From: Methylobacteriaceae bacterium
GTDB lineage: Bacteria; Pseudomonadota; Alphaproteobacteria; Rhizobiales; Beijerinckiaceae
Assembly (NCBI GenBank): GCA_016793505.1
Contig: JAEULW010000160.1
Span: forward strand, 4,756-68,755
Direction: 5' to 3'
DNA length: 64,000 nucleotides
A program made the position numbers and the translations under genes. Shown piece by piece: positions 1,568-64,000 of this stretch. The notes under the pieces are model-generated. The model saw nothing but the letters and a program-made list of their open reading frames with translations. It had not been told where the DNA came from and ran no database searches. How positions within the stretch are numbered: position 1 is the first letter of the stretch; each line of letters begins with the position of its first letter.

Positions 1568-3469
1568 ATGAAGCGCCTGAAGTCCTTGCTTCTGACAGCC
1601 TCGATTCTCGCAGCCGCGTCGATGGCCAGCGCCCTGCCGGGCTCGGCCCAGAGCATTCCGCAGAACATCCCGCGGAAGGAACTCCTCATCCTCGAAAATC
1701 CCGAAGGCACGATCAAGAACGCGGGCTGGTTCAACATCTGGGCGATCAACGCCGGCAGCCAGTCGAACGGGCTGCAGCAGGCGGCGCTCGACACGCTCTG
1801 GTACATCGACCCGGAGAAGGGCCTCGACGGGGCCTGGGACAATTCGCTGGCGGCGGAGAAGCCCGTCTACAACGCCGACTTCACCGAAATGCGCGTGAAG
1901 CTGCGGCGCGGCCTGTTCTGGTCAGACGGCGTCGAGTTCTCCTCGGCTGACGTGAAGGCGACGGTCGATCTGCAGATCAAGTTTCCGAACATGCGCTTTT
2001 CGGCGGTGCTCGCCAACAATGTCGCCTCCGTCGAGGCGCCCGACGCCGAGACGGTCATCTTCAAGCTGAAGCGGCCGAATTCACGCTTCCATGCCAACTT
2101 CACGGTGCGGTGGGGCGCGATCTGGATCCTGCCCAAGCACGTGTTCGAGAAGGTCGAAGATCCAACGAAATTCGACTTCAACAAGCCGGTTTCGCTGTCG
2201 GCCTACACGCTGAACAGCTTCGATCCGGACGGCAAGTGGTACATCTGGCAGCTGCGTGAAGACTGGCAGCGCACCTCGCTCGGCCGTTTCGGCAAGCCGG
2301 GGCCGAAATATCTCGCCTATGTCGATCCCGGCCCGCCGGACAAGCGCGTCATCGCGCAGCTCAATCACGAGCTCGACGTCATTCATGACATTGCGCCGGA
2401 GGGCATGTTCACGCTCGCCAAACAGAACAAGGCGACGAAGGCATGGTTCGACGGCTTTCCGTACGGCCATCCCGATCCCACCCTCGCCAGCGTCGTTTTC
2501 AACACGCAGAACGAGCAGTTGAAGAACCGCGACGTGCGCTGGGCGCTGACGCTGATGATCGATGTGAAACGCGTGATGATGGCGGCCTATCGCGGCGCCG
2601 CCACCATCTCCGCGATCGCCGTGCCGCCGACCGGCGTTCATCCCGAAGCCTATCACAAGCCGATGGAAGAATGGGTGAAGGGCTATGAACTCGACACCGG
2701 CAAGTCGAAGATCAAGCCCTACGATCCTGGCGTCGGCAAGCAGCTTGCGGACATGTTGCGCCCCTCGATGGGCGAGGCCATACCTTCCGATCCGGCGGTC
2801 ATCGCCAACTCCTTCGGTCTTGGCTGGTGGAAGCGCGACCTCAAGGCCGCCGGCGAGTTGCTGGAGCGGGCCGGCTATCGGCGTCAGGGCAATCAATGGA
2901 TGACGCCGGACGGCAAGCCGTTCACGGTCAAGCTGATGGTCGAGGGCGATCTGCGGCCGGTGATGACCCGCGCCGGATCGATGATCGTCGAGCAATGGAA
3001 GGAGGCGGGCGTCGATGCGCGCGTCGACATCGCGCAGGGCACGCTGCTGACGCGCCGGGCAGCCGGCGACTTCGACGCCTTCATCGGCTGGTCCGTCGAG
3101 ACCTGGGGCGGACACAATGATCTCAGCTACTTTATGGACAGCTGGCATTCCGCCTTCGTCGCCGAGCCAGGCAAGCCCCAGCCGCTGCGTAACTGGCAGC
3201 GCTGGAAGCACCCCGAACTCGACAAGCTGATCGAACAGACACGCCAGATCGGCTTCGATGATCCCAAGGGCATCGAGATCGGCAAGGACTACATCAAGCT
3301 GATGGTCAACGAGATGCCGATCATCCCGCTGATGTCCTACAACGTCTTCACGGCGATGGATCACACCTACTGGACCGGCTTCCCGACCAAGAGCAACCCC
3401 TACGCCAATCCCGTCACGAACTGGGGCAATTCGCGATACATGTTCGTCAGACTGAAGCCCGCCAACTGA
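1568..3469 (+). CDS. ABC transporter substrate-binding protein, family 5 (peptide/oligosaccharide type)
   Basis: ATG 1568 follows GGGAGGGAG. Signal peptide MKRLKSLLLTASILAAASMASA. Length and sequence are typical of the SBP_bac_5 family. Confidence 0.85.
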   Translation: MKRLKSLLLTASILAAASMASALPGSAQSIPQNIPRKELLILENPEGTIKNAGWFNIWAINAGSQSNGLQQAALDTLWYIDPEKGLDGAWDNSLAAEKPVYNADFTEMRVKLRRGLFWSDGVEFSSADVKATVDLQIKFPNMRFSAVLANNVASVEAPDAETVIFKLKRPNSRFHANFTVRWGAIWILPKHVFEKVEDPTKFDFNKPVSLSAYTLNSFDPDGKWYIWQLREDWQRTSLGRFGKPGPKYLAYVDPGPPDKRVIAQLNHELDVIHDIAPEGMFTLAKQNKATKAWFDGFPYGHPDPTLASVVFNTQNEQLKNRDVRWALTLMIDVKRVMMAAYRGAATISAIAVPPTGVHPEAYHKPMEEWVKGYELDTGKSKIKPYDPGVGKQLADMLRPSMGEAIPSDPAVIANSFGLGWWKRDLKAAGELLERAGYRRQGNQWMTPDGKPFTVKLMVEGDLRPVMTRAGSMIVEQWKEAGVDARVDIAQGTLLTRRAAGDFDAFIGWSVETWGGHNDLSYFMDSWHSAFVAEPGKPQPLRNWQRWKHPELDKLIEQTRQIGFDDPKGIEIGKDYIKLMVNEMPIIPLMSYNVFTAMDHTYWTGFPTKSNPYANPVTNWGNSRYMFVRLKPAN

Positions 3470-3490
3470 TCCCGTCGACTGAGAAACGCG

Positions 3491-3512
3491 CCCCCGTCGC
3501 TCGCGACGGGGG
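3491..3512 (+). promoter_or_regulatory. Intercistronic stem-loop between the SBP and permease genes (no T-tract)
   Basis: CCCCCGTCG (3491-3499) pairs perfectly with CGACGGGGG (3504-3512) around a 4-nt loop. It is followed by AGGAGG and the permease ATG. Such hairpins are the type often proposed to stabilise the SBP message in ABC operons. Confidence 0.5.
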
Positions 3513-3527
3513 CAGGAGGCGGAGGCG

Positions 3528-4532
3528 ATGGGCGACTACATCCGCTACGCCATGAAGCGTCTCGGACAGTTCGTCCTCGTCGTATTCATCGGCGTCAATC
3601 TCGCCTATGTCATCACCCACGCAACCCCGATCGATCCGGTCGAGCAGTCGATTTCGGCGTCGACCTCCTTCGGCAACGCCGCCCCTGAAGCCATTGCCGA
3701 AATGCGCCGATCCCTGGAGGAGCTCTACGGACTGAAGGGAAGCTGGAGCGAGCAATATCTCGCTTTCTGGAGTCGGGTGATCCGCGGTGATTTCGGCCCC
3801 TCCATGTCGGCTTTTCCGACTCCGGTCTCGAGCCTGATCGCGCGCGCGATGCCATGGACCATCGGACTGCTCGTCACCTCGACGATCATCACCTGGGCGC
3901 TCGGAAACTATCTCGGCGCGCTCGCCGGATACCATCAGCGCAGCCGTGCGCTGAAGGCCTTCGGCCTCGCAGCGATGGGCCTTCATCCGGTGCCGTACTA
4001 TATCGTCGCGCTCGTGCTGTTGATCGTGTTCGGCTATGTCTGGCCCATCCTGCCAATCTCGGGCGGCGCGGCGATGAACATGCCGCAGGGCTGGAACTGG
4101 CCCTATGTCGCAAGCGTACTCAAGCATTCGGCGCTACCGGCGCTCTCGCTGATCCTCATCGGCCTCGGATCGTGGTTCCTCGGCATGCGATCTCTGGTCT
4201 CGAACATCATCACCGATGATCATGTCGTCTATGCCGAAATCGGCGGAGTCGATCGGCGACGCATCCTTCGGTCCTATGTGATGCGCAATGCGCTGGCGCC
4301 GCAACTGACGGGGCTGGCGATGTCGCTCGGCGGCATTTTCAACGGCGCGGTCATCACGGAGAAGGTCTTCGGCTATCCCGGCGTCGGCACGCTTCTGGTC
4401 GACGCCGTCTATGCGGGCGACTACGGACTGGTGCTCGGCGTCACCACCGTGTCGATCGTCGGCGTGTCGCTGGGCGTTCTGATCATCGACCTGATCTATC
4501 CGTTGATCGATCCGCGCGTGCAGGTGGACTGA
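3528..4532 (+). CDS. ABC transporter permease (DppB/OppB-like)
   Basis: Polytopic membrane protein with a binding-protein-dependent transport inner-membrane component. Its stop overlaps the next start (ATGA at 4532). Confidence 0.85.
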   Translation: MGDYIRYAMKRLGQFVLVVFIGVNLAYVITHATPIDPVEQSISASTSFGNAAPEAIAEMRRSLEELYGLKGSWSEQYLAFWSRVIRGDFGPSMSAFPTPVSSLIARAMPWTIGLLVTSTIITWALGNYLGALAGYHQRSRALKAFGLAAMGLHPVPYYIVALVLLIVFGYVWPILPISGGAAMNMPQGWNWPYVASVLKHSALPALSLILIGLGSWFLGMRSLVSNIITDDHVVYAEIGGVDRRRILRSYVMRNALAPQLTGLAMSLGGIFNGAVITEKVFGYPGVGTLLVDAVYAGDYGLVLGVTTVSIVGVSLGVLIIDLIYPLIDPRVQVD

Positions 4533-5398
4533 TGGGCGCGATCCTCAAGGACCTCCTGAAATACAACATCGAGTTTCGCGTCGGCTCCATGCTGATCGCG
4601 ATCGTGCTGGTCATGTCCGCGCTGTCATTCGTGTCGCCCTATCCGCCGTCGGACACTTTTGTGGTCGCGCCCGACGCGCCGCCGAGCGCCGCGCACTGGT
4701 TCGGCACCACGTCGCGCGGTCAGGACGTGTTCTGGCAATTGACTTTCGCCATCCGCAACACGCTGGCCTTCGGCGTTCTTGTCGCGATGCTATCGCGCGT
4801 GTTGTCGCTGTCGATCGGACTCCTGGCCGGCTACAAGGGCGGCTGGATCGATCGAATCCTGATGTCGGTGAACGACACCTTCATCGTCATCCCTCTGTTT
4901 CCGATCCTGATCCTGTTCTACTTCGTCCTTCGCGACTCCATGTCGACGTTGTTGCTCGCCGTCATCATGGCGTGCCTCGGCTGGGCCTATGACGCGCGTC
5001 TGATCCGATCGGTGGCAATGAGTCTCAAGGCGCGCGAGTTCACCCAGGTGTCCATCTACTCCGGCATGACGACGCGGGAGATCCTCGTTCGCGAACACCT
5101 GCCCTACGTGATGCCGATCGTGTTCTCGACCACGATGAACAACATGAACTGGTCGATCGGGCTTGAGGTGACGCTGGCCGTGCTCGGCTTCATGGATATC
5201 AATTCGCCGACGATCGGCGGTATGTTGTACTGGGCCAATCAGCATACGGCCGTCGTCGCCGGCATCTGGTGGTGGATCGCGTTTCCGATCGCGCTGGTCG
5301 TCGCGGCTTTCGTCGGCCTGTTTCTCCTGGCCGTTTCGATGAACGAATATATCGATCCGCGCTCGCGGCTGGCGCGGATGGGCGGAGGCGCCCGGTGA
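4532..5398 (+). CDS. ABC transporter permease (DppC/OppC-like)
   Basis: Polytopic membrane protein, translationally coupled on both sides. Confidence 0.85.
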   Translation: MGAILKDLLKYNIEFRVGSMLIAIVLVMSALSFVSPYPPSDTFVVAPDAPPSAAHWFGTTSRGQDVFWQLTFAIRNTLAFGVLVAMLSRVLSLSIGLLAGYKGGWIDRILMSVNDTFIVIPLFPILILFYFVLRDSMSTLLLAVIMACLGWAYDARLIRSVAMSLKAREFTQVSIYSGMTTREILVREHLPYVMPIVFSTTMNNMNWSIGLEVTLAVLGFMDINSPTIGGMLYWANQHTAVVAGIWWWIAFPIALVVAAFVGLFLLAVSMNEYIDPRSRLARMGGGAR

Positions 5399-6387
5399 GC
5401 GCCGCGCCGATCCTGCAGGTGCGAAACCTTCGGGCCGCGTTCCGTACGCACCATTTCGGAGTGAGGCGCGACGTTCCGGCCGTCGACGACATCTCCTTCG
5501 ATGTGCGCGCCAATGAAATCTATGGGCTTGCGGGGGAATCCTCGTCAGGCAAGACGACCCTCATCAAGACCATTGCGGGCGTGATCAAGCCGCCGCTCGA
5601 GCTCGTCGGCGGCTCGGCTCGGTTTGCTTTCCTGCCGGACTGTGAGTCACTCGCGCAGGCGTCGCCGGCGGCCGTTGCGGCGATCCGCTGGTCGAAGCTC
5701 GCCTATATCATGCAGGGTTCGATGAACGTGCTCAATCCGGTGCGCCGCATCGGCAAGACGTTCGAGGATTTCGCATTGCGGCACATCGGCTCCGCAGGCG
5801 ACTTCCAGCAACGTGTCGAGGCGCATCTCCAGCGGGTCCGGCTGGAGCCTTCCGTCCTGCGCTCCTATCCGCATGAACTGTCTGGAGGCATGCGTCAACG
5901 GGTGACGATCGCGCTGGCGACGATCTGCGCGCCGGACTTCATCATCGCCGATGAGCCGACGACAGCGCTGGACGTGATCGTCCAGAAGGACGTGTTGGCA
6001 ATGATGCGCGACATCCAGGGCGCCATGGGCGCGTCGATCCTGTTCGTCACGCACGATATGGGCGTTCACGCCGCGCTGACGGATCGGCTCGGGATCATGT
6101 ATGCGGGCCGACTCGTCGAGGAGGCGCCGACCGACGTGATTTTTCGCGGCGCCCTTCACCCTTACACGCGCCATCTGATCGCGAGCCTGCCGCGCATCGG
6201 CGATCGGTCGGAGCGGAAAAGCCTGACCGGCGTTCCGCCCAATTTGGCGAACGCGCCGCCTGGGTGCCGCTTCCATCCCAGATGTCCGCTTGCCGTCGAT
6301 ATCTGTCGCGTTCAGGCGCCCGCGATGACCGAACTGGCGACACAGCATCGCGTCGCCTGCCACGTCGTGACCGGCGAGGCGGCATGA
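5395..6387 (+). CDS. ABC transporter ATP-binding protein (DppD/OppD-like)
   Basis: GTG 5395 overlaps the previous stop (GTGA). Walker A GESSSGKTT, signature LSGGMRQR, and the C-terminal oligopeptide-type CRFHPRCP motif. Confidence 0.85.
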   Translation: MSAAPILQVRNLRAAFRTHHFGVRRDVPAVDDISFDVRANEIYGLAGESSSGKTTLIKTIAGVIKPPLELVGGSARFAFLPDCESLAQASPAAVAAIRWSKLAYIMQGSMNVLNPVRRIGKTFEDFALRHIGSAGDFQQRVEAHLQRVRLEPSVLRSYPHELSGGMRQRVTIALATICAPDFIIADEPTTALDVIVQKDVLAMMRDIQGAMGASILFVTHDMGVHAALTDRLGIMYAGRLVEEAPTDVIFRGALHPYTRHLIASLPRIGDRSERKSLTGVPPNLANAPPGCRFHPRCPLAVDICRVQAPAMTELATQHRVACHVVTGEAA

Positions 6388-11930: not shown

Positions 11931-13580
11931 ATGACCGGCAAGGCGCATGGGGCAAGCATACTGGGATTGGCGTTCGGCGCATTTCTGGCGAGCACGGCGC
12001 TGACGCCCGTGTCGGCGCAGACGGCGGCGCCCGGCCCGAGCCTTTCGAAGGAGGCCATGGAGGCCTCCGGCAAGATTTACTTCCAGCGCTGCGCCGGCTG
12101 CCATGGCGTGTTGCGCAAGGGCGCCACCGGCAAGAATCTCGAGCCGCAGAACAGCGCCAAGCTCGGACAGGACCGCCTCGAGAAGATCATCGCACTCGGC
12201 ACCGAAGGCGGGATGGTCAATTTCGACGACATCCTGACCAAGCAGGAGATCAAGGACGTCGCGACGTATATCCAGCTTCCTCCGCAGGTCCCGCCGGAAT
12301 GGGGCATGAAGGACATGCTGGCGTCGTGGAAGAACATCGTGCCGGTCGACAAGCGACCGACGAAGCAGATGAACGCCTACAATCTGAAGAACGTCTTCTC
12401 GGTGACGCTGCGCGACGCCGGCGAGGTGGCGCTGATCGACGGCGACACCAAGCAGATCCTCAGCCGCGTGAAGACCGGCTACGCCGTGCATATCTCGCGC
12501 CTGTCGGCCTCAGGCCGCTATATCTACGTGATCGGCCGCGACGGCCTGCTGTCGCTGATCGACTTGTGGATGGAGAAGCCGGCCGTCGTCGCAGAAATGA
12601 AGTCCGGGCTCGACGCGCGCTCGGTCGACGTCTCGAAGTTCAAGGGCTTCGAGGACAAGTATGCGATCGCCGGGTCCTACTGGCCGCCGCAATACGTGAT
12701 CATGGAAGGCGACACGCTGAAGCCTCTCAAGGTCGTCTCGACCCGCGGCGTGACGGTGGACGGCGAGTATCATCCCGAGCCGCGCGTCGCCTCGATCGTC
12801 GCTTCGGTCACCAAGCCCGAATGGGTGGTGAACATCAAGGAGACCGGGCTGATCCAGCTGGTCGACTATTCCGACATCAAGAACCTGAAGACGACCACGA
12901 TCGAGTCGGCCAAGTTCCTGCACGACGGCGGCTGGGACGCCTCGAAGCGCTACTTCCTGGTCGCGGCGAACGCCTCGAACAAGGTGGCGGTCGTGGACAC
13001 CAAGGAAGGCAAGCTCGCCGCGCTCGTCGATACGGCCAAGATCCCGCATCCCGGCCGCGGCGCGAACTTCACCCATCCGAAGTTCGGACCGGTATGGGCG
13101 ACAGGCCATCTCGGCGCGGACGTGATCTCGCTGATCGGCACGGATCCCGAGAAGAACAAGGACAGCGCCTGGAAGGTCGTGCAGGAACTCAAGACGCACG
13201 GGGCCGGCAATCTGTTCGTCAAGACGCATCCGAAGTCCAAGAATCTGTGGGCCGACGCGCCGCAGAATCCGGAGAAGGACGTCGCCGAATCGGTCGCCGT
13301 CTACGATCTCAACGACCTCACCAAGAAGCCGGAAATCATCAACATCGCCAAGCTGTCGGGCCTGCCGGAATCCAAGGCGATCAAGCGCGCCGTGCATCCG
13401 GAATATGACGAGACGGGCACGGAGGTGTGGATCTCGCTGTGGGCCGGCAAGACCGAACCGTCGGCGATCGTCGTCATGGACGATGCGACGCGCAAGGTGA
13501 AGAAGGTGATCACCGATCCGAACATGATCACCCCGACCGGCAAGTTCAACGTCAACAACACCCAGCACGACGTCTACTGA
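11931..13580 (+). CDS. nirS: Cytochrome cd1 nitrite reductase
   Basis: Signal peptide, haem c site CAGCH in KIYFQRCAGCHGVLRKGATGKNL, then a d1 beta-propeller domain. 549 aa. Confidence 0.95.
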   Translation: MTGKAHGASILGLAFGAFLASTALTPVSAQTAAPGPSLSKEAMEASGKIYFQRCAGCHGVLRKGATGKNLEPQNSAKLGQDRLEKIIALGTEGGMVNFDDILTKQEIKDVATYIQLPPQVPPEWGMKDMLASWKNIVPVDKRPTKQMNAYNLKNVFSVTLRDAGEVALIDGDTKQILSRVKTGYAVHISRLSASGRYIYVIGRDGLLSLIDLWMEKPAVVAEMKSGLDARSVDVSKFKGFEDKYAIAGSYWPPQYVIMEGDTLKPLKVVSTRGVTVDGEYHPEPRVASIVASVTKPEWVVNIKETGLIQLVDYSDIKNLKTTTIESAKFLHDGGWDASKRYFLVAANASNKVAVVDTKEGKLAALVDTAKIPHPGRGANFTHPKFGPVWATGHLGADVISLIGTDPEKNKDSAWKVVQELKTHGAGNLFVKTHPKSKNLWADAPQNPEKDVAESVAVYDLNDLTKKPEIINIAKLSGLPESKAIKRAVHPEYDETGTEVWISLWAGKTEPSAIVVMDDATRKVKKVITDPNMITPTGKFNVNNTQHDVY

Positions 13581-28623: not shown

Positions 28624-29994
28624 TCATTCGGCCGGCGACAGCGCGGCGCCTTCCAGACCGGTCGCTTCCTTGCGCGGACCGATCGTCGCGTAGATGAAGA
28701 TCAGCGCGCCGACGACGACGGCGACGCCGGCGCCGAAACGCATCCAGTAGAAGAGCGCGAGCTGATCCTGCACCTCCATGAAGCTCATGCCCATGACGCG
28801 CTGCAGATGCGTCTGGACCGCTCCGGCGAAGGTCAGCACGAAGGTCATGAAGGCCATCGCGCTCGACATCATCCAGAACGACACCATGTTGGCGATCTGG
28901 TTGTAGGGATTGATGCGGAAGATGGAGGGGAACGCATAGGTCATGATCGCCAGGTTCAGCGAGACGTAGGCGCCGAAGAAGGCGAGATGGCCGTGCGCTG
29001 CGGTCACCTGCGTTCCATGCGTGTAGTAGTTGATCGGATGCAGCGTGTGCATGAAGCCCCACACGCCGGCGCCGAAGAAGGCCAGCGTCGAGCAGCCGAG
29101 CGCCCACAGCAGCGCCGCCTTGTTGGGATGATTGCGCTTGCCCTTCCACACCATCATGAAGGTGAAGACGACCATGGCGAAGAAGGGGATCACTTCCAGC
29201 GACGAGAAGATCGAGCCGATCCAGGTCCAGTAGCCGGGCGCGCCGATCCAGTAGTAGTGGTGGCCGGTGCCCAGCACGCCGGTGAACAGCGAGGTCGCGA
29301 CGATCACGTAAAGCCACTTCTCGATGACCTCGCGGTCGACGCCGGTCAGCTTGAGCATGATGAAGGCGAGCACCGAAGCCATCACCAGCTCCCAGACGCC
29401 TTCCACCCACAGATGCACGACCCACCACCAGTAGATCTTGTCGAGCACGAGGTTGGCCGGGTTGTAGAGGCCGAAGAGGAAGAAGATGGCGATGCCCCAA
29501 AGGCCCAGCAACAGCACGTTGGTGATCGCCGTCTTGCGGCCGGCGAGCACCGTAAAGGTGATGTTGTAGAGGAAGGCGAGGGCTGCGACGACGATGCCGA
29601 GCTTGACCCACAGCGGCTGCTCGAGGAATTCACGGCCCTGCTTGCCGAGAATAGGGTTGCCGTCGAACAGGTTGAACATGTAGGTCAGCACCGCGCCGAG
29701 CGTGCCGACGACCAGCAGAATCAGCTGGAAGTAAGCGATGGCCGGCGAGTGGATTTCGCGCTCGGCCTCCTCGGGGATGATGTAGTAGGCCGCGCCGAAG
29801 AAGCCGAGCAGCAGCCAGACGATCAGCGCATTCGAGTGCAGCATGCGCAGAATGTTGAAGGGCAGCAGCTCGGACAGGAAATTCGGCTGCACGTAGACAT
29901 AGCCGGCGATGAGCCCCATCAGCACCTGGACGGCAAACAGCGCGAGCGCGGCGAACCAGTACCACTTGGCGATGGCTTGGGTTTCGTATTTCAT
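28624..29994 (-). CDS. norB: Nitric oxide reductase large subunit (cNOR)
   Basis: MKYETQAIAKWYWFAALALFAVQVLMGL..., 12-TM haem-copper oxidase fold, 456 aa. Confidence 0.95.
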   Translation of the reverse strand: MKYETQAIAKWYWFAALALFAVQVLMGLIAGYVYVQPNFLSELLPFNILRMLHSNALIVWLLLGFFGAAYYIIPEEAEREIHSPAIAYFQLILLVVGTLGAVLTYMFNLFDGNPILGKQGREFLEQPLWVKLGIVVAALAFLYNITFTVLAGRKTAITNVLLLGLWGIAIFFLFGLYNPANLVLDKIYWWWVVHLWVEGVWELVMASVLAFIMLKLTGVDREVIEKWLYVIVATSLFTGVLGTGHHYYWIGAPGYWTWIGSIFSSLEVIPFFAMVVFTFMMVWKGKRNHPNKAALLWALGCSTLAFFGAGVWGFMHTLHPINYYTHGTQVTAAHGHLAFFGAYVSLNLAIMTYAFPSIFRINPYNQIANMVSFWMMSSAMAFMTFVLTFAGAVQTHLQRVMGMSFMEVQDQLALFYWMRFGAGVAVVVGALIFIYATIGPRKEATGLEGAALSPAE

Positions 29995-54935: not shown

Positions 54936-55124
54936 GACCGCGACTGCGACCATCGCGCGAAGCCACTTGCGTCACGCGCGGGGCGCTGCGGGGTGTGCTG
55001 AATTCGAGGCGATCGCGCGGGCGCGGCTCCAGAACGTAGGCGCCAGCGCTGGCGTTGCAGGCGTGGTTGCTCTAGAAGCACGTTGGGATCGCCGCGGCCG
55101 AGCATGCGGCGGAGGAAGCGTCTC

Positions 55125-55667
55125 ATGTTGTCCAGACGCGCGCTTCTTGCGCTGACCATGACTATCCTGGCGACGCCGTCGCGCGCCGGAACGCTCGAAC
55201 TGGCAGGCACGCGACATGACGGATCGCGATACGATCCGGCTGCGGTCACGGGTTGGAAGCTCGTCTATTTCGGCTATGCCCGCTGCCCGGACGTCTGTCC
55301 GGTCGGACTGCAGACGATGAGCGACGCGATCGACCGCCTGCGTGCGCTCGGCGAGCGCGTCACGCCGGTCTTTGTCACAGTTGATCCGGAGCGCGACACG
55401 CCGAGCGCAATGGCCGACTACGTCGCCTTTTTCCATCCGCGCATGATCGGGATTTCACCCTCTGCGGAGGAACTTGCCTCCATCGCCGCCGCCTGGCGGG
55501 TGAAATATGTGCGCGTCGAGATCGGCGAGGGGCGACCCTATCTGATGGATCACACGGCGAGCGTGTTTCTTGTCGATGCGCGCGGCGAACTGGCGGCTCG
55601 CTTCCCGCACGACATCACCGCTGACCGGATGGCGGCGCTGATCCAGAAAGCGTTCGAGCGTCGCTAG
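55125..55667 (+). CDS. SCO1/SenC-family copper chaperone
   Basis: ATG 55125 (MLSRRALLALTM...). CPDVCP (CXXXC) motif and the downstream DHTASVF histidine. Confidence 0.85.
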   Translation: MLSRRALLALTMTILATPSRAGTLELAGTRHDGSRYDPAAVTGWKLVYFGYARCPDVCPVGLQTMSDAIDRLRALGERVTPVFVTVDPERDTPSAMADYVAFFHPRMIGISPSAEELASIAAAWRVKYVRVEIGEGRPYLMDHTASVFLVDARGELAARFPHDITADRMAALIQKAFERR

Positions 55668-55669
55668 AC

Positions 55670-56188
55670 TCAACCGCGCGGCGCGATGAGCACGCGCAGC
55701 TGCTCGCGCGTGACGCGGGCGTCCCAATCGATCGCGCCGAGCGCGCGGGCGACCTCGCGGCCGGCGGGATCGAGCACGATCGTCGTCGGCAGACGATCGA
55801 CGCCGGTCGCAAGCGTCGCCTCGCGATTGAGGTCGTGAAACAGTTCGACCTCGGCGAGGCCAAGGTTCTCCACCGTGCGGTCGATCACGGGCCAGCCCAG
55901 CCGATCGATCGAGATGGCTGCGATCCGCAGGCCCTCGCCGCGCATGTCGCGTTGCAGCGCCTCCAGCGCGGCGAATTCCTCGCGACAACCGACGCACCAG
56001 CTCGCCCAGAAGTGGGCGAGCGTCGGCCGTCCGGCGAAACTGCCGACGTCATGGACGCGCCCATGGCGGTCGTACACGGCGAAGGCGATCGGTCGCGGCG
56101 CGGACAGGCGCCATTCGCCGGCGCCGGCGCGAGCCGGCGCAGCGAACAGCGCCGGAGCGAGAGCAAGCGCGGCGCGGCGGGTGATCAT
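55670..56188 (-). CDS. TlpA-like periplasmic thiol:disulfide oxidoreductase
   Basis: ATG 56188 overlaps the upstream stop (ATGA). Signal/anchor MITRRAALALAPALFAAPARA and the WASWCVGC active site. Confidence 0.8.
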   Translation of the reverse strand: MITRRAALALAPALFAAPARAGAGEWRLSAPRPIAFAVYDRHGRVHDVGSFAGRPTLAHFWASWCVGCREEFAALEALQRDMRGEGLRIAAISIDRLGWPVIDRTVENLGLAEVELFHDLNREATLATGVDRLPTTIVLDPAGREVARALGAIDWDARVTREQLRVLIAPRG

Positions 56189-57108
56189 GGCCGCCACCAA
56201 AGGAGGAGGGCGACGAGCAACGCCAGAATGGCCTGAAAGCGCGCGGTGTCGGCAAGACGCAGATTGATCGCGCGACCGACCGGCGTCGCGGCGAGGCGGC
56301 GGGCGAGCGGAAGCGCGCCGACGGCGCTCGCGGCGACGACGCCGGCGCCGATCATGGTCAGCGGCGCGAGCGCGACAGCTGCGATCAGGCTGGCGGCGAC
56401 GAGTTCGCCGGCGTAAAGCGCGACCGTGCGTTCGGGACCAAGCCGGATCGCCAGCGTGCGGCGCCCGTTGCCTGCGTCCTCGACGCGATCGCGATGATTG
56501 TTGACGGTGAGCACCGCGGCGGCGGGCAGACCGATGGCGAGGCCGAGCAGAAGCGCCGTGGGATCGACCCGGCCCGCCCCGAGCCAGACCGTCCCCGTCA
56601 CTGCGGCGACGCCGAAGAACAGGACGACGAAAATCTCGCCCAGCGGCGAGGCGGAGATCGGCCGCGGCCCGTAAGAGTAGCCCCAGCCGGCCAGCAGCGA
56701 TGCGACGCCGATCGCCAGAATCGGCCAGCCGCCGTGGAAGACGGCGATGGCGCCGAACAGCGCGGCGATGAGCGTGGCGGCCAGCGCGCCGCCGGCGACG
56801 GTCGACGCGGGCATCAAACCCGCGCCGGTGAGACGCTGCGGTCCGAGTCGCGCCGGGCCGTCGCCGCCGCGCGCCCCGTCCGCCGCGTCATTGGCCAGAT
56901 TCGTGGCGATCTGGATCGCCAGCGCTGAGATCGCCGCGGCGAGCACCGGCAGCTTCGCGACGACCGGGGTCAGCGTCGTCGCATGCGCGAACCCGACGAG
57001 AATCGGCGCGAACGAAATGAACAGCGTGCGCGGTCGCGCGCCGCGCAGCCACAGGACTGCGCGATCGAGGCGCCCGGCGCGCGCAGACGTGAAGGCGCTC
57101 TCGGTCAT
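56185..57108 (-). CDS. UbiA-superfamily prenyltransferase, MenA-like (1,4-dihydroxy-2-naphthoate polyprenyltransferase type)
   Basis: Polytopic, with NLANDAADGARG (N-D-x-x-D) and NNHRDRVEDAGNGRRTLA. These match the two Asp-rich MenA motifs (NDxxD and NNxRDxxxDxxxGxxTL). Confidence 0.65.
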   Translation of the reverse strand: MTESAFTSARAGRLDRAVLWLRGARPRTLFISFAPILVGFAHATTLTPVVAKLPVLAAAISALAIQIATNLANDAADGARGGDGPARLGPQRLTGAGLMPASTVAGGALAATLIAALFGAIAVFHGGWPILAIGVASLLAGWGYSYGPRPISASPLGEIFVVLFFGVAAVTGTVWLGAGRVDPTALLLGLAIGLPAAAVLTVNNHRDRVEDAGNGRRTLAIRLGPERTVALYAGELVAASLIAAVALAPLTMIGAGVVAASAVGALPLARRLAATPVGRAINLRLADTARFQAILALLVALLLWWRP

Positions 57109-57288
57109 GTCGCCGGCCTCATGCAGTCATGGCCAGGCTTGTCCCGGCTTTCCTCGCGGCGGCGGTTTCGAATGGCTTCGACATTGTGCGGCCGAGAGTC
57201 AGGCGTGGATGGCCGGGCCAAGTCCGGCCATGACGAGTAGCACCATATATGCGTCGAACCTCGCCTGCCAGCATCCTGCCGCGCGCCC

Positions 57289-58149
57289 TCATGGCAGATC
57301 CCCGCGGCGGAAAATCAGAAAGCCGACGAGGGCGCTGACGAGGCCCAGCGTCGCCGGCCAGGCGAAGGCCCAGATCATGAAGCCCATGCGGCCGAACAGA
57401 TCGAAGATCGTGTACGCCGTTGGGCCGAGCAGGACGAGTTGCGGATCGAACAGCAGCATCGAGCCGGTGCGGAACACCTGTAACGGATTGATGAGTGCGA
57501 TGGCGACGATCCCCTCGATCGCCATGCGCCCGCGGATCAGCGCGCCGAGCAGCACGAGATCGAGCGCGAGAACACAGACCAGCCAGACGAGGAAAGCGAC
57601 GGTCTGCGCCGTGTCGACCGTGCGCGTCGTCGCCGCTATAAGGAAGCCGAGGCCGACGAAGGCGAGGATCATCACGAGCAGAAGGCCGATGTCGAAGCCG
57701 AGCTCGGTCCATGGCACGGCGACGCCGCGGACGGCGCCATAGACCGCAGCCAGCAGCAGCGCGCCGACGACGGGCGCGGCGGCGAGGACGTAGCGACCGA
57801 AAAAGCGGCCCGCATACCAAGCGCCGACGCCGACAGGAAGGCCGAGCACATATTCGAAGACGCCAGCCTCGCGATCGCCGGCGAGCGAGCGCACGGTGGT
57901 GATCAGCACGAAGATCGGCAGGATCGCCATGACGAGCTGAACATAGGTGAGCAAGGTGCGCGACAGGCCGGTGAAACCGAGCACGCGCGCCTCTGTCAGC
58001 CCGAAGACGAGCAAGACGCCGACGAGCAGGATGAAGACGGCTGCATAGGCGAGAAACCAGCGCGCCCGCAGCGCCTCGGCGATCTCGAGCCGGAAGGTGG
58101 CGCGAAACCCGGGCCAGAAATCTCCCGTGCGGGCGTCGACCGCGCTCAA
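57289..58149 (-). CDS. nosY: NosY, ABC-2 type permease of the NosDFY complex
   Basis: TTG 58149 overlaps the nosL stop (TTGA). Six-TM ABC-2 permease. Confidence 0.8.
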   Translation of the reverse strand: MSAVDARTGDFWPGFRATFRLEIAEALRARWFLAYAAVFILLVGVLLVFGLTEARVLGFTGLSRTLLTYVQLVMAILPIFVLITTVRSLAGDREAGVFEYVLGLPVGVGAWYAGRFFGRYVLAAAPVVGALLLAAVYGAVRGVAVPWTELGFDIGLLLVMILAFVGLGFLIAATTRTVDTAQTVAFLVWLVCVLALDLVLLGALIRGRMAIEGIVAIALINPLQVFRTGSMLLFDPQLVLLGPTAYTIFDLFGRMGFMIWAFAWPATLGLVSALVGFLIFRRGDLP

Positions 58150-58631
58150 CTGCGGGCTCCTGCCGGGTGTTCGCAGCCGGCCTTGATCTTGATCGCCTTC
58201 GTCGCGGCTGCAAAGTCGAGCCCAAAGGCGGCGCCGGTTCCCGAGGCGTGGTCATAGCCCATCGGCGTCGGCGTCACGCGGAACATAGCGCTGCGCGCGT
58301 CGAGCCAGGTCTCGGGTTTCGTCTCGTCGATCGTCCAGAACTTTACGTCCTGCCTGTCCAGGGTTCCTGCGTCGAAAGCAGCGACCACGGCGCAGCCGAA
58401 ATCATCATAGATGCGCGGGCGGTTCTGCGTCGCGTCCCAGATCTGCGCGCCGTAGCGGCGGTCGCCGAAGGTCATGTGGCAGAACTCACAGAGATCTCGG
58501 CCCCAGCGGATCTTTCGCGGCGCGGCGACGGTCGGCGCGCAGGCGGGCAGACCCGCGGCGACTGCGACGGCGAACGCGGCGCGCATCAGCGCGCGACGCG
58601 AAACGCAACCCTCACGAGACGCGCGGCGCAT
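58146..58631 (-). CDS. nosL: NosL copper-chaperone lipoprotein
   Basis: Lipobox LPAC, then the CEFCHM metal motif typical of NosL. Overlaps nosF by 20 nt. Confidence 0.8.
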   Translation of the reverse strand: MRRASREGCVSRRALMRAAFAVAVAAGLPACAPTVAAPRKIRWGRDLCEFCHMTFGDRRYGAQIWDATQNRPRIYDDFGCAVVAAFDAGTLDRQDVKFWTIDETKPETWLDARSAMFRVTPTPMGYDHASGTGAAFGLDFAAATKAIKIKAGCEHPAGARS

Positions 58632-59493
58632 CGGCCTTCTCCCTTCGCGCCGCGTCGAGCCGCATCGCGCCGACGAGGCCGGCGTGACGGGCGAGGAAGC
58701 CGAGAAAGCGCAATCGGTCCGGGCCGGAGATGACGCCAGACCAGACGCGCGGCGGTCCTTCGGTCATCGCCCATTCAGCTGCGGCGCGGGCGAAACCTGG
58801 CTCGTCGCGCACCGTCTCGAGCCGCACATCGAAGTGCGAGCCGAGCGCGCCGGCGTCGGCGATCTCGTCATCGAGGACAATGCGGCCGCGATCGAGCTCG
58901 ACGACGCGATTCACCAGTCCGGCAATCTCGTCGATGCGGTGGGACGAAATGATCATCGTCGCATCCTGCGCGCGTTCGGCGAGCAGCGCAAACAGGCCGG
59001 CGCGGGCCTGCGGGTCGAGATTGGCGGCAGGCTCGTCCAGGATGAGCAGGCGCGCCCGTCGGCCGAGCGCCATGGCGATCAGAAGCTTCTGTTTCATGCC
59101 GCCGGAAAGCCGTACGAATGGGCGGCGGGCGACCTCCTCCGGGTCGAGGCCGAGGCGGCGCGAGACATCGGCCATCGACGCGACGGAGGCGCCGCATACG
59201 TCGGCGACATAGCGCATCAGGCCGCCGACCGGCGTGACCAGGCGCGGGGCGATCTGGGGCACGAAAGCGATGTCGCGCAGTACGGCGGCGCGCTCGGTGC
59301 GCGGATCGCGCCCGTCGATGGCGATCCGACCCCGATAGACATACTCGCCGAGCAGGCAGCGGAACAGCGTCGTCTTGCCGGCGCCGTTCTGGCCGATCAG
59401 GGCGATGCGCTGACCCTGCGACGCCGTGAGCGACAGGCCGTCGAGCACGGCCGCGCCGCCGAGCGTCTTGGTCAAGGCCTCGATCGCGATCAT
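58612..59493 (-). CDS. nosF: NosF, ABC ATPase of the NosDFY complex
   Basis: ATG 59493 overlaps the nosH stop (ATGA). Walker A GQNGAGKTT, signature LSGGMKQK, Walker B LILDEPAANLD. Confidence 0.85.
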   Translation of the reverse strand: MIAIEALTKTLGGAAVLDGLSLTASQGQRIALIGQNGAGKTTLFRCLLGEYVYRGRIAIDGRDPRTERAAVLRDIAFVPQIAPRLVTPVGGLMRYVADVCGASVASMADVSRRLGLDPEEVARRPFVRLSGGMKQKLLIAMALGRRARLLILDEPAANLDPQARAGLFALLAERAQDATMIISSHRIDEIAGLVNRVVELDRGRIVLDDEIADAGALGSHFDVRLETVRDEPGFARAAAEWAMTEGPPRVWSGVISGPDRLRFLGFLARHAGLVGAMRLDAARREKADAPRVS

Positions 59494-60545
59494 GCGGGCG
59501 GGGTCTCCGCGCCGACGCGCTCGGCCGGCGCGTCGAGGCGCGGGCGCGCGGGGCGCTGATAAGGCCTCGTGACGCCGGCGACCTCGAAGGTCAGAGCGCC
59601 GGTCGGGCAGGCGTCGAGACAGAGCGCGCAGCGCGTGCAGTCCGGCCCGATCGGCTCGCGCACTTCCGTGCCATAGCTCATCTTCGTCATGTCGAGCACA
59701 TGCGGCACGAGGCAAACCTGGCGGCACTTGCCTTCATGGAAGCAGGCGTCGGCGTTATAAACGATCTGCACCGGCGCGGCGACGCCGGCGAAGCCGTAGG
59801 TGAGCCCGATCGGGCAGATATAGCGGCACCAGAAGCGGCGCGACCACACAATCTCGATCGCCAGCAGCAGCGCAATCCAGATGAGCGCGACGAGCGTGCC
59901 ATAGGTGAGGGCGCGGGACAGAATGCCGACCGGCGAGATCGCCTCGAACAGCGTGTAGCCTGTGCCGAAGGCGAGCGCGGCGAAGATGACGAACATGACG
60001 ACGCGCAGGCGCCGGTCGAGTTCATGATCCTTGACGAGGCGCTTTTCGGCGAGCTTCAGGTGCAGCATCTCGGCAATTTCCGAGAGCAGATGATAGGGGC
60101 ACACCCAGGCGCAGAAGCTGCGGCCGCCGAACAGGATGTAGATCAGGAAGACGGTGGCGACGCCGATGACGAGATTGAGAACGACATGCTTGTGCGCCAG
60201 CATCAGCTGCAGCGACGAATTGAGATCGGCGAAATGAAAGCCGAGTACGCGCGAGGCGGTGAGCGCGCCTTCGACGAGTTGCAGGTCGAGCCAGTAGGAC
60301 AGAATGAAAATGCCGTTGAGGACGATGATCGAGGCCCAGCGGCGGGAGCGCCACTTCCACGACATCTCCTCGTGCTCGCGCTCGGCGGCGATCGCCTCCT
60401 TGCGGCGCTTGCGTTCGGATGGCGTCTTCTTGAAGGCGAGCAGCTCGCGGGCGTCGGCGCTCATCTCCTCGGGCGCCGGCTTGACCGGAACCTTGCCGAG
60501 CATAAGCGCGAGGCCCTTGATCGTGCGGGGCAGGAAGGCGCTCAT
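59490..60545 (-). CDS. nosH: NosH, NapH-like membrane-bound polyferredoxin (quinol dehydrogenase subunit)
   Basis: ATG 60545 shares 1 nt with the nosG stop. Four TM helices, two CX3CP motifs (CAWVCP, CRYICP), and two C-terminal 4Fe-4S motifs (CFHEGKCRQVC, CTRCALCLDACP). Confidence 0.8.
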   Translation of the reverse strand: MSAFLPRTIKGLALMLGKVPVKPAPEEMSADARELLAFKKTPSERKRRKEAIAAEREHEEMSWKWRSRRWASIIVLNGIFILSYWLDLQLVEGALTASRVLGFHFADLNSSLQLMLAHKHVVLNLVIGVATVFLIYILFGGRSFCAWVCPYHLLSEIAEMLHLKLAEKRLVKDHELDRRLRVVMFVIFAALAFGTGYTLFEAISPVGILSRALTYGTLVALIWIALLLAIEIVWSRRFWCRYICPIGLTYGFAGVAAPVQIVYNADACFHEGKCRQVCLVPHVLDMTKMSYGTEVREPIGPDCTRCALCLDACPTGALTFEVAGVTRPYQRPARPRLDAPAERVGAETPPA

Positions 60546-61333
60546 CAGGCCGCTCCTCTCGGCTTGGGCGCGCGCGCGCCGGGAGAGACGTCGATGACGA
60601 TGGCGGCCGGTTCGGCCGGGCACATCATCTCGCAGACGCCGCAGCCGACGCAACTCTTGTTCACGACCGGCGTGCGTCGCCGATCGGCGGGATCGGTTGA
60701 AACGGGTTCGAGCGCGATCGCGCCTTCGATCGGGCATTCGCGCACGCACAGATCGCAGAGGGCGAGATCATAGGGCTGCGAGGCGACGGGCCTGGGCTTC
60801 CAGCGATCCACCTTTGCGTAGCGCAACAGCCCACGAAACGCCTCGCCGCGCGCCGATCCTTTAAAGCCCTCACCCTTGCGGGCGAGGCAGGCGTCGGGCC
60901 GGGCGAGCCGCGCCACGCCCATCGTCACCTGCTCCTTCTTGTCGATGAGATGCGACAAGGCGCCGGTCGGGCAGGCGAGCACGCATTGCGTTGCGTCGCA
61001 GGAGAAGTCGCAGGCCTGGTCGCGCGCCACGATGTAGGGCGCGCCGTTGCCGACGCCTTCCTGAATGTCGGCGAGATGGATTGCCTTGACGGGGCAGACC
61101 TGCACGCATTGGCCGCACTTGATGCAGGCGGCGAGAAACTCTTTTTCGTCGAGCGCGCCGGGCGGGCGCAAACGCGGGGCGGCCTTCGCGACGTATTGCG
61201 GCAGCAGGCCGGCGAGAGCGGCGCAGGTCATCGCCGCCCCGACAGCCACGGAACGCATCAGTTTGCGGCGTTCCTCGTCGATCTTCTTGGAGGGACGGCG
61301 CACCGGCGCGGCGGACTCGGGGATATCGCTCAT
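60545..61333 (-). CDS. nosG: NosG, NapG-like periplasmic polyferredoxin
   Basis: ATG 61333 overlaps the nosD stop (ATGA). Twin-arginine-like ERRKLMRSVAVGAAM. Four Cys clusters (CIKCGQCVQVCP, CDATQCVLACP, CDLCVRECP, CVGCGVCEMMCP). Confidence 0.8.
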   Translation of the reverse strand: MSDIPESAAPVRRPSKKIDEERRKLMRSVAVGAAMTCAALAGLLPQYVAKAAPRLRPPGALDEKEFLAACIKCGQCVQVCPVKAIHLADIQEGVGNGAPYIVARDQACDFSCDATQCVLACPTGALSHLIDKKEQVTMGVARLARPDACLARKGEGFKGSARGEAFRGLLRYAKVDRWKPRPVASQPYDLALCDLCVRECPIEGAIALEPVSTDPADRRRTPVVNKSCVGCGVCEMMCPAEPAAIVIDVSPGARAPKPRGAA

Positions 61334-62739
61334 GAGCCTTTGTCCGCACGAGGCGCGCCCGCGCCGGCCGGCGGCGCGAACAAAGGCGCCGAGTCGCGAA
61401 TGATCAGCTGCGGCTCGTGAAAGGCGCCGAGACGCTCGACGAAATCGATGGCCTCGAGGGACGGCGCGGCGCGGAAGAATTGCGCGTCGGGGACATCCAT
61501 CCACAGCCGGTCGGCCCAGCTCCAGCTCTCATAGGGTGTGTCGCCGACGCCGTCGCGATTGCGGTCGAAGCCCTCGTAGTCATCCCAATAGTTGCCGTCC
61601 CATCGGTTGCGCTTCGCCGAGCGCGCGCCGGCGACCGTGACGGCGCGATGATTGCCGATGAAGGCGTTGTGCGCGAAGGCGTTGCCTTCCCAGTCGGAAT
61701 GGAAGGCTACGGCGACGCCGTTATAGGCGATGCGGTTCATCTCGAAGCGGTTGAAGCCTTCAGGATCGTAAGGCGAGGCGTCCATGAAGACGCCGCGGGC
61801 GTTGGCGAAGATGTCGTTGTTGACGACGAGCGTGTTCGACGATTCCTTGAAGCCGACGCCGATCCCGGACGGACCCTGACTGTAGGTGATGACGTTGCCG
61901 ACGATCTTCGTGTCGTTGGCGTACATCAGAAAGACGCCGACGGTGTTCGACATGAAGTGGTTCTTCTCGATCGAATTTCCGTGCGCATACATGAGGTGCG
62001 CACCGTAACGGCTCTCGCGGATGCGATTGCCGGCGATGCGGTTCTGCCCGGCATACCAGACGACGAGGTCGCGCGTGCGCTCGATGTCGTTGTCCTCGAT
62101 GATGTTGCCGGTGGAGTACCAGACGCGGATGGCGTCGCCGCGCAACGCCTCGGGCAGGCGCTTCGACTGGATGCGATTGCGACGAATGATGTTGCGATCG
62201 GCCTGCTTCAGCTCGAAGCCGAACAGACAGTTCTCGATCACGTTGTCCTTGAAGCTGCCGTGCTTGCCGCGCAGGCGGATTGCGGCGTCCGTCGTCTCGT
62301 GGCGCTCGCCGGAATTGCGCAGGGTCAGGCCCGAGATCGCCACGTCGTCAGCAGTCACCGTCACGATCGAACCGACGCCCCCGCCGTCGACGACGGCGCC
62401 TTTCTCGGCCTCGATGCGCATCTGGCGATCGACCCGGCCGGGCGCAGCGTAGACGCCGGGTCGCAGCGTCAGAACGCCGCCCGTCGGCGTCGCGTCGATC
62501 AGCGGCTGAAGCCGGGTCGCGCCGGGCGGGAAACGCCGGAGACTTTCGAGCTCGTCTTCGGAGCGCGGATCGGGCGGAGGCAGAGAGTGATCGGTGAAAC
62601 TCGCGTTGCGGGTCAGATCGTAGACGCCGAAGCGGGAGGCGACTTTCGTCACCGCGACGCCGACGACGACAGTGACGGCGAGTGCGGCGAGGCCCGTCGT
62701 CAGGCGCTTTGCCCAGAGCGTCGCGAGCGCGCGCGCCAT
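61330..62739 (-). CDS. nosD: NosD, periplasmic beta-helix protein of the NosDFY complex
   Basis: Parallel beta-helix repeats (NNDIFANARGVFM, NRIAYNGVAVAFH and others), 469 aa, N-terminal anchor. Confidence 0.9.
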   Translation of the reverse strand: MARALATLWAKRLTTGLAALAVTVVVGVAVTKVASRFGVYDLTRNASFTDHSLPPPDPRSEDELESLRRFPPGATRLQPLIDATPTGGVLTLRPGVYAAPGRVDRQMRIEAEKGAVVDGGGVGSIVTVTADDVAISGLTLRNSGERHETTDAAIRLRGKHGSFKDNVIENCLFGFELKQADRNIIRRNRIQSKRLPEALRGDAIRVWYSTGNIIEDNDIERTRDLVVWYAGQNRIAGNRIRESRYGAHLMYAHGNSIEKNHFMSNTVGVFLMYANDTKIVGNVITYSQGPSGIGVGFKESSNTLVVNNDIFANARGVFMDASPYDPEGFNRFEMNRIAYNGVAVAFHSDWEGNAFAHNAFIGNHRAVTVAGARSAKRNRWDGNYWDDYEGFDRNRDGVGDTPYESWSWADRLWMDVPDAQFFRAAPSLEAIDFVERLGAFHEPQLIIRDSAPLFAPPAGAGAPRADKGS

Positions 62740-62740
62740 G

Positions 62741-63982
62741 TCAGCACTTCTCCGCCTCTGGCAGGCTGCGACGGGTCAGGGTCGCCGCCGCCATGGCGAG
62801 GCCGACAACCGCCATCAGCGCAAAGCCAGTGGAGGGATAGGAGTGGGTCGAGAACTGCGCGACCTTGCCGTCGCCAAATACGGTCGGCATGAACGGCTTC
62901 AGCGTAAACGCGCCCATCTCGTTGAGGCTGTGGCCGTACCACCAGAGCCAGCCGGCATATTCCGCGACGAAGCCGATCGGCAGCATCATCGGCGCGAAAG
63001 CCAGCGCGTAGAAGAGCACGGAGCGCGGGCGCGTCGCCAGCCACAGCATGGCGAGCATGGCTAGGATCAGCCCGCCATAGAGCAGATGGGCGACGGTCGT
63101 CATGATGGCGACGAGGCGGCCATTCTTTGCCGGCTCGTTGAACCAGCGGCCGAGGCTTTCGGCATAGTGCCAGGCCATGACGTCGAGGCCGCGCCCGGTC
63201 CATTTCGGCGTGGGGTCGGTAAGGCTGACCGGCGCTTTCTGGTCATGCACGGTCTTGAGGATCTCGATCAATTGCGCCTTACTGGCGGAGGCGTCGACCT
63301 TTGGGCGGGACGCGTCGCCGAGGCCGCTCCTGGCCAGCGACTCCTTCAGCTGCTTGACGACGGGATGGAGGTTCTCGTCCTTCGTCTCGTCCTCGGAACG
63401 GCCGAGACTGTCGACAAGGCCGGCGACCCAACCCTTGCCAAGATACTGAACGCCATTCTGCGTGAACAGGGCGAGCGTCATCCATGCGACGATGCCGGCA
63501 AATCCGAGCGCCATCACGCCCGTGCGAAGCGCAGTTCCGGGCAGGGCGAAGCCGAGGATCAGCACGCCGAGGAAAGCGAACAGGAAGGGGGAGAACAGCT
63601 TTTCGACCGGGCCGCCGGAGGCGATCGGAAACATCCCGACGAAGTGATTGATGGTGTCCATCTCATGCACGCAGTCGAGCGCTTCTTTTTCGAGAACCTC
63701 GGAGCTCTTGCGCAGCGTGCAGCCGTTCGAGACGCGATCGACATGAAAGTTGATGCGCACACCGTCGGGGAAAGTGTGCGCAGGATAATTGGGGGCGCGC
63801 AACGCCACCCACCATGCCGGCTGGAAATAGGCCGCGCCGAGCGCCAGCAGCGCGATGACGCAGAGCGCGCGATAGATCAGCGCGGCGCGGGAGGGCGCAG
63901 TGGCGGCGGGCGCGGCGAGGCTGACGCCGACGGTCTCGGCGCTTTGGATCATGCCGCTTTCGTGCGTGGCGCTGTGGTTCAT
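62741..63982 (-). CDS. nosB: Six-TM membrane protein in the position of NosB (clade II nos signature gene)
   Basis: 413 aa with about 6 predicted TM helices and a roughly 100-aa soluble loop. It ends 1 nt before the nosD ATG. The assignment rests on position and topology, not on motif recognition. Confidence 0.5.
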   Translation of the reverse strand: MNHSATHESGMIQSAETVGVSLAAPAATAPSRAALIYRALCVIALLALGAAYFQPAWWVALRAPNYPAHTFPDGVRINFHVDRVSNGCTLRKSSEVLEKEALDCVHEMDTINHFVGMFPIASGGPVEKLFSPFLFAFLGVLILGFALPGTALRTGVMALGFAGIVAWMTLALFTQNGVQYLGKGWVAGLVDSLGRSEDETKDENLHPVVKQLKESLARSGLGDASRPKVDASASKAQLIEILKTVHDQKAPVSLTDPTPKWTGRGLDVMAWHYAESLGRWFNEPAKNGRLVAIMTTVAHLLYGGLILAMLAMLWLATRPRSVLFYALAFAPMMLPIGFVAEYAGWLWWYGHSLNEMGAFTLKPFMPTVFGDGKVAQFSTHSYPSTGFALMAVVGLAMAAATLTRRSLPEAEKC

Positions 63983-64000
63983 CGGTCGCGATCATCCGTG

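Follow-up and report, generated by a model that had tools for sequence, protein, structure and literature searches.

A predicted clade II nitrous oxide reductase operon with a long-form NosB in a Methylobacteriaceae bacterium

Genes of the accessory block

The 64,000-nucleotide (nt) stretch of DNA analyzed here, hereafter the window, comes from a Methylobacteriaceae bacterium and corresponds to bases 4756-68755 of the 75,150-bp contig C334, which runs 6.4 kb beyond it; the assembly (4.12 Mb, 352 contigs, 66% GC) is estimated to be 94.9% complete. The last part of the window carries the accessory genes nosB, nosD, nosG, nosH, nosF, nosL and nosY of a nos cluster, the set of genes that accompanies the nitrous oxide (N2O) reductase NosZ. 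N2O is a potent greenhouse gas whose main biological sink is formed by the clade II reducers, which makes it worthwhile to establish in which denitrifiers the clade II form of the reductase occurs. A first-pass annotation, made from the letters of the window, had placed seven minus-strand open reading frames (ORFs) between 57289 and 63982, joined by overlaps of 1-20 nt or by a 1-nt gap, and had read them as a clade II-type block. All seven ORFs were present where it had put them, and the GC content at their third codon positions (GC3, 0.78-0.85) was as in real genes of a 66% GC genome. With the NosG, NosH and NosF starts trimmed to fit the upstream stops, the junctions were a 1-nt gap between nosB and nosD, and overlaps of 4 nt (nosD/nosG), 1 nt (nosG/nosH), 4 nt (nosH/nosF), 20 nt (nosF/nosL) and 4 nt (nosL/nosY), which bears out the proposed coupling.

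Families were assigned by profile search with Pfam and NCBIfam/TIGR models, and the bit scores were compared with the cut-offs of the models. The nosD gene (61330..62739) encodes a periplasmic beta-helix maturation protein, which scored 375 bits with TIGR04247 (cut-off 300) and matched PF05048 at E 5.5e-40. Next to it, nosG (60545..61333) encodes a NapG-like periplasmic ferredoxin of 262 amino acids (aa) from MSDIPES, with four [4Fe-4S] motifs in the form of Cys clusters ending in CP, and with a signal resembling those of twin-arginine translocation (Tat) with the motif RRKLM. The nosH product (59490..60545) is a NapH-like membrane polyferredoxin of 351 aa that passed the NapH/MauN model TIGR02163 with 228 bits (cut-off 213); CX3CP occurs in it twice, at residues 145 and 240, and its C-terminus carries a CxxCxxCxxxCP motif. 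An ATP-binding cassette (ABC) ATPase of 293 aa from MIAIEAL is encoded by nosF (58612..59493; PF00005, E 2e-25), and nosY (57289..58149) encodes an ABC-2 permease with six to seven hydrophobic segments (PF12679, E 5e-11). The 161-aa product of nosL (58146..58631) is a divergent copper-chaperone lipoprotein that had to be assigned by its orthologues: the window copy gave no Pfam match even at E<=1. Since eight of nine orthologues from related loci match PF05573 (NosL; best E 1.3e-7), and since the lipobox Cys31 and the motif C48-x2-C51-x-M53 are invariant among the orthologues, we accepted the window protein as a divergent NosL. Automatic annotation would probably label this copy hypothetical.

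The first gene of the block, nosB (62741..63982), encodes a membrane protein of 413 aa with six hydrophobic segments, for which the first-pass annotation had proposed the identity with NosB. No Pfam or NCBIfam model matched this protein, and hence it was compared by BLASTP with published NosB sequences, namely the NosB-NosC2 fusions of Sulfurimonas denitrificans and Sulfurospirillum multivorans (Text S1 of PMC11409646, chosen there following Hein et al. 2017). Two blocks of similarity, one at residues 302-406 (E 1e-21, 41-54% identity) and the other at residues 55-147 (E 4e-14), confirmed the assignment. The periplasmic NosB motifs LNHYIGM and YGHN, quoted from van Spanning in a passage of PMC9697520, correspond here to INHFVGM (residues 111-117) and YGHS (residues 349-352), and H113, G116, M117, G350 and H351 were invariant in an alignment of 29 sequences. 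By the positive-inside rule, the conserved His/Met motifs would all face the periplasm. Between the two blocks lies an insert of about 155 residues (residues 148-301, window 63079-63541), a hairpin made up of two additional membrane segments and of a hydrophilic, predicted periplasmic domain in which a WHY...F motif is invariant. The window protein is a long form of NosB; relatives of about 200-270 aa also occur, and in these the similarity is limited to the two outer blocks. Its start may instead be M11 (window 63952), which would match a 93%-identical relative and leave a protein of 403 aa. In an AlphaFold2 model built from the 29-sequence alignment (predicted local distance difference test score (pLDDT) 72, predicted template modelling score (pTM) 0.74), the helices were confident and the conserved periplasmic loops were poorly defined. 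At least 2070 homologues were found in a metagenome protein collection.

Two side observations concern this protein family. The first periplasmic loop of NosB contains two invariant cysteines, C88 and C104, which the Campylobacterota reference NosB proteins do not have. In addition, the homologue from Siculibacillus (P0009) carries the NCBI name 'H-NS histone family protein', probably a misannotation due to the hydrophilic insert.

NosZ and two cytochromes beyond the window edge

From the accessory block it had been predicted that a Sec-type clade II nosZ would lie on the same strand directly beyond base 64000, next to nosB, and that the NosGH pair would lack its usual cytochromes. The prediction of the gene and its type was correct, and that of its place was not. 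The nosZ gene (contig C334 70440-72731, minus strand) is the third gene upstream of nosB, and it encodes a protein of 763 aa that scored 875 bits with the Sec-dependent model TIGR04246 (cut-off 625) and 384 bits, under the cut-off, with the Tat-type model TIGR04244. The signal type was also judged by eye from the N-terminus (MRSVWKSTVALGVLAGWLGASAAGA), which has one Arg and no RR ahead of the hydrophobic core; just four further open codons precede the start. Upstream of nosZ there is a divergent gene for a LysR-type regulator.

The two intervening genes (contig C334 68820-69590 and 69620-70318, both on the minus strand) encode dihaem cytochromes c of 256 aa and 232 aa, respectively, each with a signal peptide and two CXXCH motifs; the models matched were PF00034 and PF13442. 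They are mutual paralogues with 26% identity. The proposal of a NosGH module operating without c-type cytochromes of its own, and of a nosZ that immediately precedes nosB, had started from the 1-nt overlap of nosG and nosH, which leaves no cytochrome gene between them. This part of the claim stood; the cluster as a whole does contain cytochrome genes, and these are kept between nosZ and nosB in essentially all related loci (here and below, the best 80 of 451 NosB relatives among GTDB species genomes, searched by tblastn with all the cluster proteins). The module is therefore not deprived of cytochromes, and the contig sequence past the window refutes the proposal; the cytochromes seemed to be missing as an effect of the window edge.

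The C-terminus of NosZ carries an extension of about 120 aa (residues 642-763; contig C334 70440-70808, or L003 2440-2808 in the numbering of the extracted locus). Among 70 orthologues its identity is 62-83%, and none of the solved NosZ structures includes it. AlphaFold2 confidently predicted a bundle of three helices (pLDDT above 95), for which Foldseek returned just generic helical bundles at E >= 0.8, and there is no CXXCH haem motif in NosZ, the extension included. A second observation outside the window is a dyad, TTATC-AATG-GTCAA, which precedes the nosZ start by about 120 nt (L003 4851-4864, minus strand). Sequences of the family TTnnC-N4-nTCAA also precede nirS and norC, and nine matches occur in the window, where 2.6 would be expected. 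This suggests that the dyad is a candidate FNR/NnrR box, through which nosZ might be co-regulated with nirS and the nor genes.

Distribution and comparison with known N2O reductase clusters

The order nosZ-cytochrome-cytochrome-nosB-D-G-H-F-L-Y was colinear without gaps in 79 of the 80 related loci, the position of nosF being kept in the same number, and the full set of ten genes was found in 65. Carriers in the Hyphomicrobiales include Siculibacillus, Pinisolibacter aquiterrae B13, Prosthecomicrobium, Bradyrhizobium nanningense, Rhodoblastus and Rhodoplanes; also among the carriers are many Rhodobacterales, Rhodobium, Terasakiella and, with the Chromatiales among the orders represented, the gammaproteobacterial sulfur oxidisers Thiocapsa marina and Sedimenticola. 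In a FastTree phylogeny the window NosZ took a basal position in a Hyphomicrobiales clade of 18 members, which had a Shimodaira-Hasegawa (SH)-like support of 100. The first-pass annotation had drawn attention to the combination of nirS, the cytochrome c-dependent nitric oxide reductase (cNOR) and clade II nosZ. No fewer than 79 further species-level genomes, of which many are alphaproteobacterial, had the same architecture, and PMC11409646 reports a few alphaproteobacterial metagenome-assembled genomes (MAGs) of clade II; together, the colinear loci and these MAGs mean that the combination is not exceptional in an alphaproteobacterium.

When the window cluster was compared with those of Bradyrhizobium nanningense CCBAU 53390, Pinisolibacter aquiterrae B13, Pseudothioclava nitratireducens, Thiocapsa marina 5811 and Rhodobium orientis, all of them shared the ten genes, their order and strand, the long-form NosB, the C-terminal extension of NosZ and the F-L-Y order, with 45-92% identity between the proteins. 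In its core the operon shows no departure from that of its proteobacterial relatives; the differences are a NosL that gives no Pfam match and the lack of the UbiE-like gene that the Hyphomicrobiales relatives have between sco1 and tlpA, two genes adjoining the cluster. The Dechloromonas/Azospira type is presumably a cluster of the same kind. From gene content and order, this clade II nos operon appears intact and unexceptional, one of a type that is widespread among Proteobacteria and whose architecture was already known. It adds one Hyphomicrobiales genome with napA, nirS, cNOR and clade II nosZ, which by itself is routine annotation, and the fixed ten-gene layout of the lineage can be used as an annotation template.

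In Wolinella succinogenes the nos genes are reported to be ordered nosZ-B-D-G-C1-C2-H-F-Y-L (Simon et al. 2004; Hein et al. 2017). That system and the window cluster have in common the Sec-type NosZ, NosB, NosD, the NapGH-like NosGH pair, c-type cytochromes, NosF, NosY and NosL, and both are without NosR and NosX. They differ in the place and nature of the cytochromes, which in the window cluster are dihaem proteins encoded between nosZ and nosB and in Wolinella are encoded between nosG and nosH. Furthermore, Wolinella-type NosZ ends in a haem c domain whereas the window NosZ ends in the 3-helix extension without CXXCH, NosB has four segments in Wolinella and six, with the inserted hairpin of about 155 aa, in the window, and the order F-Y-L is replaced by F-L-Y. 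The clade I clusters nosRZDFYLX of alphaproteobacterial denitrifiers such as Paracoccus and Bradyrhizobium diazoefficiens share with the window the catalytic core of NosZ, to which the 384 bits with the Tat-type model point, NosD, NosF, NosY and NosL, as well as the nirS and cNOR partners. In contrast to them, this genome lacks NosR and ApbE/NosX, its NosZ would use Sec and not Tat, and NosB, NosGH and the cytochromes are present.

Our analysis established which genes are present, in what order they stand, how tightly they are coupled and how well they are conserved among genomes; the functional roles given below are inferred from homology with the Wolinella succinogenes and Pseudomonas systems. 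Very probably, clade II N2O respiration is encoded here by one intact operon, of which the window block makes up the downstream two-thirds. Three results weigh against this reading. First, the best matches of NosG were the NapG models NF007012 (142 bits) and TIGR00397 (138 bits), both under their cut-offs. Second, when the PDB was searched by Foldseek with the NosB model, no match fell below E 0.2, and neither a solved relative nor a functional clue was obtained. Third, the dihaem cytochromes resemble the monohaem NosC2 domain at the level of the haem motif only (E 2e-4 over 18 residues), so that their equivalence to NosC1/C2 is positional and not demonstrated.

Alternatively, the cluster could be a relic, recently acquired by transfer or in decay, with which N2O is no longer reduced. 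Its distribution is patchy: of the 151 genomes from the order 12 carry nosB, and three genomes from the same family have none. In addition, the nos-linked UbiE paralogue of the relatives is missing here. On the other hand, the ten ORFs are intact and have native GC and GC3 values, the CuA and Fe-S motifs are present, and the proteins are 54-92% identical to their orthologues, which makes decay very improbable.

Denitrification genes, electron supply and the quinone question

If the cluster is functional, its product would complete a denitrification pathway encoded in the same genome. Both nir and nor clusters had been noticed in the window, and profile matches were obtained for the two. The nirS gene (11931..13580, plus strand) for the cytochrome cd1 nitrite reductase matched PF02239 at E 2e-150, together with a cytochrome c domain, and nirT-, nirE-, nirF-, nirDL-, nirJ- and nirN-like genes lie in its region. 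The catalytic subunit of cNOR is encoded by norB (28624..29994, minus strand; PF00115, E 9e-73), which is adjoined by norC, for a cytochrome c, and by a COX3-like norE. Elsewhere in the genome there is a NapA (1498 bits); the profile search of the genome found no NarG. NapA, NirS, cNOR and clade II NosZ are all present, and therefore the gene set for full denitrification is there, as the first-pass annotation had proposed. An additional clade I nosZ elsewhere in the genome was considered and rejected, since the profile search revealed no second nosZ. The nosR and nosX genes, which the first-pass annotation had missed in the accessory block, were not found elsewhere in the genome either: the only match of the NosR model NF046105 in the genome was NosH itself, with 29 bits, and PF02424 (ApbE/NosX) had no match in this 94.9% complete assembly. 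With a Sec-type NosZ, NosB and NosGH found, and NosR and ApbE/NosX not found, the cluster is of the clade II type.

On contig C168, napA stands side by side with napG- and napH-like genes of its own (1896-6084). In architecture, NosG and NosH correspond to NapG and NapH, the NosH scoring above the NapH/MauN cut-off and the NosG under the NapG cut-offs, yet they form a separate paralogous pair: NosG is 38% identical to the NapG of this genome, and NosH 26% identical to its NapH. Because of these low identities to the NapGH copies on contig C168, NosGH is a dedicated pair. On this sequence comparison the genome holds two NapGH-type modules, one predicted to serve nitrate and the other N2O.

By analogy with the characterized systems, NosZ would be exported unfolded via Sec and would reduce N2O in the periplasm. 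Quinol would be oxidised by the membrane protein NosH and the Tat-exported NosG with its four [4Fe-4S] clusters, and the electrons would then pass from NosGH to the two periplasmic dihaem cytochromes c and on to the CuA site of NosZ, with the bc1 complex as a parallel feed. NosD, NosF and NosY, together with NosL, would assemble the CuZ site, and NosB would be a required membrane partner. Passages of PMC11102522, PMC13685413 and PMC9697520 describe the roles of NosG, NosC1, NosC2, NosH and NosB in W. succinogenes, and according to these sources NosB is required in that organism.

The share of the bc1 complex in this scheme could be larger, so that the bulk of the electrons would reach NosZ from bc1 via the two dihaem cytochromes and NosGH would not be the main route. 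A bc1 Rieske protein is present in the genome, and N2O respiration of W. succinogenes depends on a Rieske/cytochrome bc complex, as the title of Hein et al. 2017, cited in PMC11409646, has it. In addition, PMC13685413 regards NosHG as functionally analogous to NosR, and NosH has the CX3CP membrane core in common with NosR (match with NF046105 at 29 bits). Against this distribution of the electrons, NosGH is strictly conserved and translationally coupled within the operon in 79 of the 80 loci, and NapGH-type modules are known quinol dehydrogenases. We hold bc1 as the main route to be unlikely, and favour NosGH as the entry point of electrons from the quinol.

Which quinol this would be is a question raised by the genes downstream of nosY. 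After a gap of 180 nt there is a gene for a MenA-like prenyltransferase of the UbiA family (56185..57108, minus strand), which scored 135.5 bits with TIGR00751 (menA; cut-off 102) and 219 bits, under the cut-off of 264, with NF004751. Both Asp-rich motifs are present, as NDAAD and DRVED, and UBIAD1 was its sole relative in the PDB. The gap contains an 8-bp inverted repeat, ATGGCCGG-N7-CCGGCCAT (window about 57209-57231, minus strand), without a T tail, and a terminator and promoter scan of this interval was uninformative. The menA-like gene overlaps by 16 nt a gene for a TlpA-like periplasmic thiol:disulfide oxidoreductase (55670..56200, minus strand; PF00578 and PF08534, and NF047696 TlpA at E 9e-20, under its cut-off). 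Convergent with tlpA is the gene for a Sco1/SenC copper chaperone (55083..55667, plus strand; PF02630, E 9e-38), which was present in 51 of the 80 related loci. TlpA and Sco1 probably serve the CuA site.

In 53 of the 80 loci a menA-like gene lay no more than 10 kb from the operon; in Hyphomicrobiales it follows nosY, and in Rhodobacterales it precedes nosZ. Among 151 genomes of the Hyphomicrobiales, it occurred in all 12 with nosB vs 4 of the 139 without it (Fisher p about 1e-14). Relatives also encode a methyltransferase paralogue of the UbiE/COQ5 family beside the menA-like gene (e.g., L031 3814-4566, L036 3752-4582 and L005 18176-18877). In Rhodobacterales it is translationally coupled upstream of the menA-like gene, which also adjoins a PCuAC chaperone gene, and in most Hyphomicrobiales relatives it is encoded between sco1 and tlpA. 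The possibility that this nos-linked gene of the relatives encodes an RquA-type enzyme of rhodoquinone synthesis was rejected, since the full UbiE/COQ5 profile was matched at E 1e-56 to 1e-61. In the window, sco1 and tlpA are direct neighbours without the paralogue, and contig C150 carries the single UbiE homologue of the genome (40% identity). The genome encodes the UbiA of ubiquinone synthesis (332 bits), and neither the classical nor the futalosine route of naphthoate supply could be traced in it: the best match of MenD had 66 bits (cut-off 244), that of MenB 216 bits (cut-off 343), and PF02621 (MqnA/D) had no match. Our literature searches gave nothing relevant that linked clade II nosZ with a prenyltransferase, or menA with a nos cluster.

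Because the MenA-type gene travels with the nos genes, co-occurs with nosB and is joined in most relatives by a UbiE/MenG paralogue, we tentatively suggest that clade II N2O respiration in this proteobacterial lineage might be tied to a naphthoquinone, even in Alphaproteobacteria of the ubiquinone type; this is a possible reading, to which we give somewhat less than even weight. If so, NosGH would run on a low-potential quinone, and, given that MenB, MenD and MqnA were not found, its head group would be salvaged from other microbes or made by a route novel to date. As the operon is regularly accompanied by genes for finishing menaquinone and for CuA chaperones, the identity of the quinone that feeds NosGH becomes testable in cultured carriers.

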